A DNA stretch of 64,000 bases, from positions 12,580-76,579 of the IMG/VR virus record IMGVR_UViG_2597490201_000002. One strand, given 5' to 3'. Positions 12,350 to 26,233 of this stretch are shown in pieces (position 1 is the first letter of the stretch; each line of letters begins with the position of its first letter). The stretch is from a virus. Its lineage: Duplodnaviria; Caudoviricetes. Both the position numbers and the translations under genes were made by a program. The notes below the pieces were generated by a model. The model was not told the origin of the DNA. It saw nothing but the letters and a program-made list of their open reading frames with translations, and did no database searches.

Positions 12350-12753
12350 AGAACCGAGGAGATAAGCGGCCGATGCTGAGCATTCGTCGTACCAGCCGCA
12401 ATCGTGGCGGCAATGCCTACACTGAGACCCGGACGAACGCCTGGGCGGGGATGCTCGGCTTTCTCACCGGCCGAGGGTACTCGTCGGTGGCCATAGCCGA
12501 AGTGCTGGGCGAGGGGACCACTTCGGAGACCGTGCGCAGCATGTGGACGAAGTGGGGCTTCCGCGGCCGTGGTTTGAAGAGCAGGGAAGTCAGCCTTCAG
12601 GTGCCGTTTAGGGAACGGGAAAGGGCCCATATCGCGGCCCGCGCCGCGCAGCACGACTTGTCCCCCGAAGAATACTGCAGGCGCATCATGTTGTGCGCGT
12701 CGATGCCCCGGGATCGGTATGACGAAATTGTGCCGGCCGACCAATTCGAATAA
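12346..12753 (+). CDS. Putative HTH protein
   Basis: GYSSVAIAEVLG..TSETVRSM; start uncertain. Confidence 0.55.
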   Translation: MKNRGDKRPMLSIRRTSRNRGGNAYTETRTNAWAGMLGFLTGRGYSSVAIAEVLGEGTTSETVRSMWTKWGFRGRGLKSREVSLQVPFRERERAHIAARAAQHDLSPEEYCRRIMLCASMPRDRYDEIVPADQFE

Positions 12754-23837: not shown

Positions 23838-24138
23838 TGTGAGCGAGTTCATCGTCGTAGCGCCGGCGATGCTGGGGAAAGCCGTCGAATGGGCGGAGCC
23901 GCGGCTGCTCGAATTCTTAGGCGATCAGTTCCCGAGCTATCGCTTCCGCATCGAGCCTTTCGGGCCATTCGCAGACGACGAAGAATTCACAGTGATCCCG
24001 ATCATGAACCGGCCGCCTGTGCCTGGCGAAGATCGTGATCCTGACGAGTTGCACATGTGCCAGCTCCACCCCGAAGCCATTCCGCAGATTCAGCAGGCTC
24101 TGCGTTCATTCGATCCAGACAAGACCAGGAGCCACTGA
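23824..24138 (+). CDS. Hypothetical acidic protein
   Basis: Overlapping gene of the SOS-boxed operon. Confidence 0.65.
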   Translation: MSQHDVSEFIVVAPAMLGKAVEWAEPRLLEFLGDQFPSYRFRIEPFGPFADDEEFTVIPIMNRPPVPGEDRDPDELHMCQLHPEAIPQIQQALRSFDPDKTRSH

Positions 24139-24395
24139 TGCAGACCGCGCGTATAGACCACAACAGCCGAGTTACCCACTACGTGGTGCAGGCCTATCGG
24201 AAGATGGGGAAGAAGATCGTCGCCGACGAACCGAAGATCGCGACCGACGAGCGGCACTGCTTGCGGATGGCAGAGGCCGCCGCGCCGCGCCGCCATGGCG
24301 TTATCGCCTTCTCACGAACCGGCGATGCCGATACGGGCGACTTCGACGATCCGGTGATCCTTGCCACCCACGGCGAAGTGCCTGAAATGTCCTGA
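24138..24395 (+). CDS. Small uncharacterised protein, homologous to 896-1147
   Basis: AGGAG RBS, TGATG coupling; GVIAFSRTGD..GDFDDPVIL..GEVPE. Confidence 0.75.
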   Translation: MQTARIDHNSRVTHYVVQAYRKMGKKIVADEPKIATDERHCLRMAEAAAPRRHGVIAFSRTGDADTGDFDDPVILATHGEVPEMS

Positions 24396-24455: not shown

Positions 24456-24576
24456 AAAAGCAAAGGCCCCGCCGAGGCGAGGCCTTTTACAGCACCATAC
24501 GAGAGTTTGCTTTCACTCCGGTGTATGGTGGCCCCTGGTGGGGTCTTAATGCCGATCCTTTCGGAGAGCGGCTGAC
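24456..24576 (-). ncRNA. Putative structured ncRNA downstream of the PemK/MazF gene
   Basis: Own promoter TTGACG(24611-06)-17-TATGTT(24588-83), three hairpins including a GAAA tetraloop, and an intrinsic terminator. Confidence 0.68.
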
Positions 24577-24593
24577 GCGTGAAACATAATGTT

Positions 24594-25019
24594 TCATGGG
24601 GTTTTCGTCAAGGAAGAAAGCCCAAGGCTATTGAGCAGACAATGATGCGCGGTCAGCAGAAGTTCCTTGCCGACGGGTGCTTTTAGGTACTGCCGATTAC
24701 CGGAACGGTCTTTCCCTAGCCGGATCAAGTCTATGCGGTGAAAGCCGACGGTATTCACCATATCGCCTTTGATCCACATGGTTGGGGAATCGTACGGCTC
24801 GGGCAGTGCAAACGGGAGCGCGATCTCTGCATGATATGGCATGACCACGTTCGGGGCGGTGGTGCTGAGGGCAACTACCGTGCAAAGACCTGGCCTCGTC
24901 GCAATCTGCGGACAGATAACCAACGCTGGACGGCGTTTTATCATTTCCGGGGTGCGGAAGCCCTGATCGAAGTCAACAATAACGACGGCACCTTGGCCCG
25001 GATGATACTGAATCGCCAT
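24594..25019 (-). CDS. PemK/MazF-family endoribonuclease (YifN-like), no protein antitoxin adjacent
   Basis: VDFDQGFRTPEMIKRRPALVI, TVVALSTT, WIKGDMVNTVGFHRID. Confidence 0.88.
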   Translation of the reverse strand: MAIQYHPGQGAVVIVDFDQGFRTPEMIKRRPALVICPQIATRPGLCTVVALSTTAPNVVMPYHAEIALPFALPEPYDSPTMWIKGDMVNTVGFHRIDLIRLGKDRSGNRQYLKAPVGKELLLTAHHCLLNSLGLSSLTKTP

Positions 25020-25121
25020 TGCCGATATTTACGCTAGGCCGGTTAATTTAACCAAGCGGATTTCAGGTCCAAAGTCGTCAACTCAGCGCTGCGATCTTCG
25101 CCAGTTCATCAGCCGTCCCGA

Positions 25122-25475
25122 CTACCAGCCGCACGTTTCTCGAACTGGCGCAAGCGCTGTCTCCAATCCGGCAAGGTTGAACGTAACTTCGATGGCCGGT
25201 TCGCTCACCGTCAGCGTCTGAGCGAATAGGGAATTCGCCCCGATGAACTGTTTGATCGATCGAATAGCCTGCCCGCTCGGGATCATTAGAGACGTTCTGT
25301 CGTTGGAAGCAATCATCTGAACCGCGAACGCTGGGTTGCTGTCAGCCCTGAAAGTCACTTTACCCAAGCCGCCAATGTCCGAGGTGTAGAGAGACGTGCT
25401 CTTGTGCGTTTGCCACGCGGTGGCTGGTGCCGCTGAGGCCATCACTACGATCAGACCGGTTGCCAGTGCCCTCAT
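25122..25475 (-). CDS. Exported protein in cI operon
   Basis: Signal peptide; C-terminal FNLAGLETALAPVRETCGW. Confidence 0.65.
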   Translation of the reverse strand: MRALATGLIVVMASAAPATAWQTHKSTSLYTSDIGGLGKVTFRADSNPAFAVQMIASNDRTSLMIPSGQAIRSIKQFIGANSLFAQTLTVSEPAIEVTFNLAGLETALAPVRETCGW

Positions 25476-25483
25476 GCTTCCCC

Positions 25484-26233
25484 CTACAGCGGTAAGTCGT
25501 TTCTCACCGATCTTACCAAAGCAATAATCTCGACGCTCACGCCATCGTCGGCCTGGGTGTCGCGCTTCACTACGATAGGCATGAGGCTTTTGTCCGACGA
25601 GCGCGGGTGAAACTCGATCCTGTCCTCATAGAGTTCGATCTGCTTCACTGACCATTCGCGGGTGTGGCCTCCATCGCGGGTGCGCTCGACGACAACGACC
25701 AAGCCATCCTTGATCCTCACCTGGTGAGCGACATCCTCATAGGCAACGCCGATGATGCGGTCGCCGGGGAGGATGGGGCGGGGATGAAGCTCATTCATAG
25801 AGATTCCATCAACGTCCCACGCCATACGGCGGGCGTTCGGGAATTTCTCGTCAGGCGGCTCCCAGACGCGTTCTGGTGCCGACTGGTCGAATTCGTTGGC
25901 TTCCCTGAATACGCCGGCTGCGACCTTGCCGTTGACCTTGATTGGCAGCAGCGGACGATGATGCGCCGGCACGATCTCAGAAGGCTCGGTTGGTTGCTGG
26001 GCCACTTCATCCGCGTCTGACGTCAGCCACTCCACAGGTTGCTGAAGATAGTCGGCAAGTCCCTGCAGGTTTGCTCCTCGAGGGAATGCTGATCGCCCCT
26101 GCTTTATGGCTCGCAAGAGGTCAGGGTTCTTTCCTCCAGTGGCAGCCAGAGATGCGGCGCGATCACTAGTTCCGGGGTGCAGTTCGTCAATGCGGGCGCG
26201 GATGCGCTCATAGGCTGTCGTCATGTGCGGCAT
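25484..26233 (-). CDS. cI: CI-like repressor (HTH + S24 peptidase), unit 2
   Basis: VAAG cleavage motif, GISMN serine, SVKQ lysine; start may be 26224. Confidence 0.9.
   Translation of the reverse strand: MPHMTTAYERIRARIDELHPGTSDRAASLAATGGKNPDLLRAIKQGRSAFPRGANLQGLADYLQQPVEWLTSDADEVAQQPTEPSEIVPAHHRPLLPIKVNGKVAAGVFREANEFDQSAPERVWEPPDEKFPNARRMAWDVDGISMNELHPRPILPGDRIIGVAYEDVAHQVRIKDGLVVVVERTRDGGHTREWSVKQIELYEDRIEFHPRSSDKSLMPIVVKRDTQADDGVSVEIIALVRSVRNDLPL

Follow-up and report, generated by a model that had tools for sequence, protein, structure and literature searches.

MazF and PemK are among the best-studied toxins of toxin-antitoxin systems, and 'orphan' copies of their genes are mostly written off as remnants, if they are explained at all. 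Passages of an account of type III systems, in which the antitoxin is an RNA, state that the toxins share the MazF/Kid/CcdB fold and that the loci are defined by a tandem array of short repeats, followed by a terminator and then by a ToxN-like toxin gene (PMC5086642). Single RNA antitoxins have been described in phage defence as well: AvcID is presented as having a single small RNA (sRNA) antitoxin, with AvcD being a deoxycytidylate deaminase (PMC10511110), and phage-encoded AbiF of C. difficile as a protein toxin with a single-RNA antitoxin (bioRxiv 10.1101/2025.04.15.648962). The locus analysed here belongs to a 64,000-nucleotide stretch of a Caudoviricetes virus record (IMG/VR record IMGVR_UViG_2597490201_000002, positions 12,580 to 76,579), which is called the window throughout and in which positions are counted from its first letter. 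It comprises a gene for a putative MazF/PemK-fold toxin on the minus strand (24594..25019) and, directly behind it on the same strand, a predicted sRNA gene of ~120 nucleotides (nt; 24457..24577), whose 5' end was placed from the promoter and whose 3' end was placed from the U-tract of the terminator. The pairing of gene and RNA was confirmed, far beyond chance, and the interpretation of the RNA as an antitoxin is partly supported, as far as computation goes. The reading that we favour, with a probability of roughly 0.55, is that of a type III-like pair of toxin and RNA antitoxin, new in its architecture and situated in a prophage lysogeny module.

The locus shares with type III systems (ToxIN, CptIN and TenpIN; AbiQ) the combination of a predicted protein endoribonuclease toxin with an adjoining non-coding RNA and no protein antitoxin, as well as settings linked to phage defence and mobile elements. 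The RNA is even found ahead of the toxin gene in a few viral loci of the family, where a GC-rich sequence that was read as terminator-like follows it. In contrast, the toxin of the window matches the Pfam family PemK and, at E <= 0.1, none of the ToxN, CptN or TenpN families, and the locus would at most work like a type III system, not being a member of the known type III families. With the type II pairs MazEF, PemIK (Kis-Kid) and ChpBIK it has in common the toxin fold, the Pfam family and the positions aligned with R29 and T52 of MazF, but no MazE/PemI-type antitoxin gene is conserved beside the toxin in the 81 cellular and 80 viral loci compared. Unlike in type I systems, RNA and gene lie on one strand, and no antisense excess to the toxin mRNA was seen. 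AvcID and AbiF resemble the locus in having one RNA and not a repeat array, whereas their toxins, as described in the passages cited above, are unrelated to that of the window.

A covariance model of the RNA, here called R1, matched the window at 24469..24588 with 94.7 bits (expectation value, E, 5.2e-28), and the minus-strand fold reached -58.5 kcal/mol (z -3.96), a stability matched by 1 of 200 shuffles. The sequence-only reading had described a minus-strand unit of ~120 nt with the helices GCCG/CGGC around UCC-GAAA-GGA, CCCC-ACCA-GGGG and CACCAUAC/GUAUGGUG with an inner GGAGU/ACUCU, followed by a terminator, and all of these were reproduced by the fold. In helix P1 (24551..24572, minus strand, as are all parts of the RNA), the GCCG/CGGC pairs enclose a conserved internal loop, CUCU...AU, and the variable inner hairpin. 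It is followed by a conserved single-stranded linker, AUUAAGA (24544..24550; family consensus UAAGAC), by the short helix P2 (24532..24543) and by the long helix P3 (24493..24530), whose loop is GAAAGCAA in the window and GAnnnCAA in the family consensus. Nearly all of the relatives inspected share this layout: a GCGG/CCGC-type helix with the CUCU...AU loop and a variable hairpin is followed by the UAAGAC linker, then by a hairpin of 4 bp and by a long helix that encloses an inner one and the GAnnnCAA loop, and the unit closes with a terminator. In the alignment of model matches, UAAGACC and the A...CAA of the P3 loop are at least 90% conserved. The invariant nucleotides concentrate in unpaired junctions and loops, as expected of a protein-binding surface.

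A conserved, covarying structure behind the homologous genes, the check set in advance for this RNA, was clearly present. From a plain MAFFT alignment of 72 downstream stretches, fitted to no structure, RNAalifold derived a consensus with 20 pairs, and compensatory changes were present in 17 of these. Paired cells amounted to 96.4%, against 76.1% in shuffled alignments, and none of 500 shuffles reached the observed value; cells changed on both sides numbered 329, against 101.5 expected. When the partners were slid by 1-3 columns, pairing fell to 29-47%, a control in which the structure is favoured by having been derived from the tested alignment, whereas the count of double changes is not explained in this way. 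All three helices contributed: in P1, 3 of the 4 outer pairs were changed on both sides across the 72 sequences, with 99.0% of cells paired; in P2, CG, UA and GC pairs alternate at columns 75-91 and 76-90; and in P3, both-side changes were found in 6 of 6 outer and 4 of 4 inner comparative pairs. The comparative data are also in keeping with the assignment to the minus strand that had been made from G-U pairs, with GU in six sequences at pair 98-142, and GU in six and UG in four at pair 102-138. A pseudoknot was considered and rejected, as a mutual-information scan of all column pairs in the model alignment placed only nested helices at the top. Chance or artefact as the origin of the signal was ruled out by the covariation together with the linkage counts given below.

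One statement of the sequence-only reading did not hold, namely that the strand of the RNA contains no open reading frame (ORF): a 36-amino-acid (aa) ORF is present at 24487..24597, its ATG overlapping the toxin stop codon (ATGA). A hidden peptide gene was nevertheless rejected, because the compensatory pair changes are unlike those of a coding region and because the ORF is not conserved, 35 of 73 relatives having no ORF of at least 30 codons that starts there, and the lengths ranging from 0 to 458 codons. The description of the RNA as a single-copy unit was upheld; a repeat search detected only CGCCG x3.2 at 24278 as a tandem repeat, and no direct repeats.

The linkage between RNA and gene was determined in 80 alphaproteobacterial loci, fetched from one-genome-per-species contigs at 45-60% protein identity with an alignment of 21 relatives as query. 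R1 was found directly behind the gene in 78 of them, that is, in all 78 with downstream DNA, since the two loci without a match (L067 and L104) end ~30 nt past the stop codon. The whole 5.05-Mb genome of the window holds one R1 match. In a sample of 151 genomes of the same bacterial family there were three R1 matches, each at the gene, and nine matches to the protein profile at E <= 1e-10; out of the six genomes with the protein only, three (G191, G237 and G242) revealed a weaker R1 directly downstream in unfiltered searches (26.1, 20.4 and 12.2 bits, respectively). A sample of 151 genomes of the class gave five R1 matches, four of them directly behind a homolog of the gene; the fifth (23 bits), lying inside a 158-aa ORF on the opposite strand, is probably a false hit. 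A BLAST-type DNA search of 243 family genomes returned only terminator-like matches to the last 40 nt, the body of the RNA being too diverged for such a search.

Damaged loci are informative about the dependence between the two genes. Broken toxin genes that retain the RNA were found in L106 (frameshift; 83.2 bits) and L115 (gene in two pieces; 26.8 bits), and genes with in-frame stops that retain it in L116 (20.4 bits) and L117 (12.2 bits), whereas no intact toxin gene without the RNA was found among the close homologs. Such an imbalance would be expected of an addiction module in which the RNA serves as the antidote. L076 additionally contains an RNA copy with no toxin gene (885-1004; 46.6 bits), located ~300 nt past the first one and behind a short ORF, whose product looks DUF2283-like.

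The RNA had been proposed to be separately promoted, and the comparison points in the same direction. A promoter scan recovered the near-consensus promoter noticed in the last toxin codons, TTGACG-17-TATGTT at 24611..24583 on the minus strand, in a region where promoter-like sites number 2 in 2.5 kb, against 0.8 expected. The -35 box (TTGACG, 24606..24611) lies inside Leu-Thr codons of the toxin, and the -10 box (TATGTT, 24583..24588) follows at 17 nt. TTGAC was found near the gene end in 69 of 73 non-duplicate loci, and in 66 of those 69 it is in frame as Leu-Thr. Within the box the Leu codon is TTG in 66 of 66 cases, compared with 180 of 776 (23%) elsewhere in the same genes, and the Thr codon is ACA in 55 of 66, compared with 82 of 431 elsewhere. 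This codon bias indicates that the -35 box is kept at the nucleotide level within the last codons of the toxin. With the spacer fixed at 17 nt, the -10 hexamer of the relatives has A at position 2 in 60 of 69 loci, T at position 3 in 44 and T at position 5 in 57. The first helix begins ~10 nt past the -10 box in the relatives, which would place the 5' end of the RNA near 24577.

The pair is also present on plasmids and in phages. R1 was detected behind the gene in relatives from a Polaromonas plasmid (32.0 bits), a 13.8-kb Vibrio phage (Vinavirales; 27.7 bits) and a 6.9-kb Citrobacter plasmid (13.7 bits). From 88 relatives in IMG/VR, 80 loci were kept, and with default filters R1 was found at E <= 0.1 in 55 of these, just downstream on the same strand in 54 and just upstream in one (L193). 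Gene order is variable. The RNA lies immediately upstream of the gene and on the same strand in L193 (2345-2467), L188 (2319-2443), L203 (2364-2457) and L202 (2364-2483), and also in L189 (2362-2479), there with E 0.07-0.2, and in L140 (2912-3036, minus strand) it is downstream on the strand opposite to the gene. The fact that order and orientation vary while linkage is kept suggests two genes with cooperating products and not a cis-acting 3' untranslated region. The commonest viral neighbours were an upstream helix-turn-helix (HTH) protein (10 of 80 loci), an HTH+S24 repressor (9 of 80, upstream on the same strand in 8 of these 9), integrases (8) and terminases (7). Thus, the module tends toward lysogeny modules and prophage ends.

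The 141-aa product of the toxin gene matched the Pfam family PemK_toxin (PF02452; E 1.3e-9, 38.6 bits against a cut-off of 23.1), the sole Pfam family found for it at E <= 0.1; membership in the ToxN, CptN or TenpN families was not detected at this threshold. An AlphaFold2 model built on 21 family sequences had a mean predicted local distance difference test (pLDDT) score of 88.4, and its best PDB matches in Foldseek were the MazF toxins of S. aureus, B. subtilis, M. tuberculosis and E. coli (probability 1.00, template modelling score 0.6-0.77); the sequences of solved MazF proteins were reached weakly by the family profile (E 0.03 or worse). R30 and S52 are invariant in the 21 family sequences and are aligned by the profile with R29 and T52 of E. 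coli MazF, presumably the catalytic residues of that enzyme. The protein is accordingly described here as a putative YifN-like endoribonuclease toxin of MazF/PemK fold. A search of 5.8 billion proteins retrieved 127 relatives, mostly of ~141 aa and alphaproteobacterial.

No protein partner emerged beside the gene, in agreement with its earlier description as lacking an adjoining protein antitoxin. A clustering of the 2382 ORFs of 50 aa or more found up to 2.5 kb from the gene in 81 cellular loci gave no neighbour cluster in more than 7 loci, and in the 80 viral loci the largest cluster comprised 10. The DNA upstream of the toxin gene is not conserved. An 85-aa ORF on the plus strand (24138..24395), which resembles TacA below cut-off (E 0.046) and PADLOC PDC-S02 (E 0.005), was examined as a candidate antitoxin and rejected, being convergent and having no counterpart in the other loci. 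By eye, the largest cellular neighbour cluster (L042:3616-4482 and six other loci) looks like a transposase of insertion sequence (IS) type with an N-terminal zinc-ribbon.

In the function that we propose, the two genes would form a module in which a MazF/PemK-fold endoribonuclease has no protein antitoxin and has the ~120-nt RNA as its constant partner. Having its own promoter, of sigma-70 type, the RNA would not depend on the toxin mRNA for its synthesis and would probably be produced in excess. It would bind the toxin directly through the CUCU/AU internal loop, the UAAGAC linker and the GAnnnCAA loop, blocking the RNA-binding groove of the toxin as RNA antitoxins do in type III systems. The position of the pair behind a cI-like prophage repressor leads to the expectation that it is expressed in the lysogen. 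If transcription were shut off, because another phage infects or the element is lost, and if the RNA were the less stable product, the toxin would be set free and would stop growth. Toxicity, direct binding, lability of the RNA and a role in defence are the steps that we infer in this scheme. The broader proposal, that a whole YifN-like branch of the MazF/PemK superfamily, whose members are commonly annotated as type II toxins and resemble orphans, is neutralised by a dedicated structured sRNA with its promoter in the last codons of the toxin, and that it constitutes a new type III class, spread by plasmids and prophages across Proteobacteria and acting as abortive-infection switches expressed in lysogens, stands at even odds.

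Other roles for the RNA have to be weighed against that of an antitoxin. Its location directly behind the stop codon and on the same strand in most loci would suit a cis-acting 3' element of the toxin mRNA, such as a stabiliser or an elaborate terminator, with no role of its own. This explanation is hardly credible given that the RNA has a conserved promoter of its own, that it lies upstream or on the opposite strand in some loci, and that a toxin-less copy exists in L076. A regulatory sRNA that does not bind the toxin protein and acts by base pairing, to the toxin mRNA in a type I-like manner or to host or phage mRNAs, is somewhat easier to conceive, as the RNA has the size typical of bacterial sRNAs, its own promoter and a terminator, and its weak look-alikes in Rfam (rsmX, 26.5 bits, and istR, 20.4 bits, both far below gathering) are sRNAs. 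We nonetheless consider it improbable. Duplex energies with the toxin mRNA were alike for cognate and non-cognate RNAs, both in the translation start region (p 0.31) and in the coding body (p 0.08), and the lack of excess cognate complementarity leaves an antisense mechanism without support. Moreover, what is conserved consists of short loops and junctions, a long seed being absent, and linkage to one protein family over alpha-, beta- and gammaproteobacteria, plasmids and phages is hard to reconcile with host targets that differ between lineages.

The main rival is an obligate ribonucleoprotein with another role, in which the RNA would be a cofactor, a scaffold or a specific substrate, as in an RNA-processing enzyme or a sensor complex, instead of an inhibitor, and in which the protein alone may be non-toxic. 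Any obligate protein-RNA pair could account for strict linkage, for the conservation of unpaired nucleotides and for a gene order that varies. The family has just 1007 profile representatives at E <= 0.001 among 1.84 billion proteins (634 at E <= 1e-10 and 92 at E <= 1e-30, the representatives being clusters of 50% identity), and PADLOC has no model for the protein. Such a ribonucleoprotein is made less likely by the retention of catalytic positions and fold from a known toxin family, by the presence of the module on small plasmids, in prophages and beside IS-like genes, where addiction or defence modules are found as well, and by the intact RNA that remains next to broken protein genes, since an RNA serving purely as a cofactor would be expected to be lost along with its enzyme.

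Several observations nevertheless weigh against a toxin held in check by this RNA. Strict linkage fits an RNA cofactor or substrate equally well, and the toxicity of the protein is assumed from its fold and residues. The RNA departs from the type III pattern in being a single three-helix unit of ~120 nt with no repeats, its own promoter and, usually, a downstream position. R1 was also missing from some loci: more distant PemK-like genes of the same bacterial family (G110, G200 and G197) had no R1 match with filters off, and 25 of the 80 viral loci had none at E <= 0.1 with default filters. Unfiltered searches of 17 of these 25 loci uncovered an adjacent match at E <= 0.1 in 10; in 5 others the match lay at E 0.1-1, and in L194 and L198 there was none at E <= 1.

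An RNA named after this toxin group has been reported, the pemK RNA motif, a structured RNA associated in name with pemK genes and listed as Rfam family RF02913 (passages of PMC7657543 and of bioRxiv 10.1101/2021.11.03.467129). Its model (61 positions, gathering score 34.8 bits) had no match in the genome of the window at E <= 10, and the family was absent among the matches at E <= 10 on the window stretch and, at the gathering score, on 17 related loci. Likewise, no family of Rfam 15 reached its gathering score on the window RNA, the best being rsmX with 26.5 bits against a gathering score of 56, and none matched the RNA at that score in the 17 related loci. No paper pairing a YifN-/PemK-family toxin with a downstream structured RNA was found in titles, abstracts and some passages, although supplementary sRNA lists may include this RNA.

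Some farther relatives may have another kind of RNA. R1 did not exceed 3.2 bits at a relative on E. coli plasmid p5217 (170 aa, matched over residues 1-111), nor 3 bits at the yifN locus of E. coli K-12. By eye, the end of the K-12 yifN gene carries TTGACA-17-TAATGA, with a short hairpin RNA and then a terminator behind it. Three distant PemK-like genes without R1 (L119:920-1060, L121:860-970 and L126:560-740, minus strand), one from the window's own genus (L119), one from the same family and one being K-12 yifN, display the same arrangement by eye, namely a TTGAxA box at the end of the gene and a -10 box, behind which a short hairpin RNA precedes a terminator. The short RNAs of L119 and E. 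coli yifN share GGGACCUGCG and CCCUAA. These short hairpin RNAs may be a further class of RNA, of smaller size, belonging to the same toxin superfamily, or may be reduced homologs of the three-helix RNA.

If RNA controls this branch of the family, the type II label given to its genes by annotation pipelines is wrong, and the partner gene is overlooked altogether. The list of RNA antitoxins would gain a family of other architecture, with one three-helix RNA in place of repeat arrays, and an unusual coupling would be added in which the promoter of one partner is encoded within the reading frame of the other. The pair is small (~560 bp) and would bear on phage defence, plasmid stability and the recognition of RNA by proteins.

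Regarding the genomic setting, matches to PHROG families 2045, 2600, 4, 3502 and 4212 around the site identify the region as a prophage. Upstream of the toxin gene and on the same strand lies a gene for a cI-like prophage repressor (25484..26233), which matched PHROG 4 ('transcriptional repressor', E 8e-8) and, below cut-off, Peptidase_S24 (18.1 bits). In phage lambda, rexAB are accessory genes behind the repressor gene in the lysogeny module. The comparison of the toxin gene with this slot, made earlier from the order of genes, proved fair: it lies behind a cI-like repressor on the same strand, and the Vibrio phage and 9 of 80 viral loci are alike, the gene of the Vibrio phage directly following a LexA/S24-type repressor and that of the window nearly so. 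The likeness to rexAB is one of position only, with no relation in sequence or mechanism. The immediate surroundings were also as first described, with a leader-bearing protein upstream of the toxin and two plus-strand ORFs that converge on it from downstream and end at 24395.

An intrinsic terminator was located by the scan at 24456..24484 on the minus strand, with a stem at 24478..24466 and the tail CTTTGCTTTT. An A run on one side of the hairpin and a T run on the other, so that the plus strand also has a stem followed by a T run, and the location of the hairpin 60-90 nt past the end of the convergent plus-strand genes (24395) suggest that it may serve both directions and end those genes too.

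The perfect palindrome that had been noticed over the promoter, TGAAACAT-A-ATGTTTCA at 24580..24596, is indeed present and covers the toxin stop codon and the -10 box. It has one copy in the window with up to 3 mismatches allowed, and no palindrome of this kind was seen by eye in the inspected downstream stretches of relatives. This 8+1+8 element could be an operator or a weak plus-strand hairpin.

Contigs of three sequencing runs (X1-X3) cover only parts of the stretch. Two of them (X1 and X2, two runs of one sample) carry 24456-24588 with 2 differences and then, beyond 24456, continue into unlike DNA, which points to a nearly identical RNA gene in another genomic setting.

Finally, the leader-bearing protein encoded between repressor and toxin (25122..25475, minus strand; 117 aa) has a hydrophobic N-terminus resembling a signal peptide and matched PHROG 1848 and, with 26.7 bits just at the Pfam cut-off of 26.5, the family VasI (PF11319), the similarity being to the C-terminal part of this type VI secretion protein. 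A VasI-like protein with a leader is an odd cargo for a lysogeny module.

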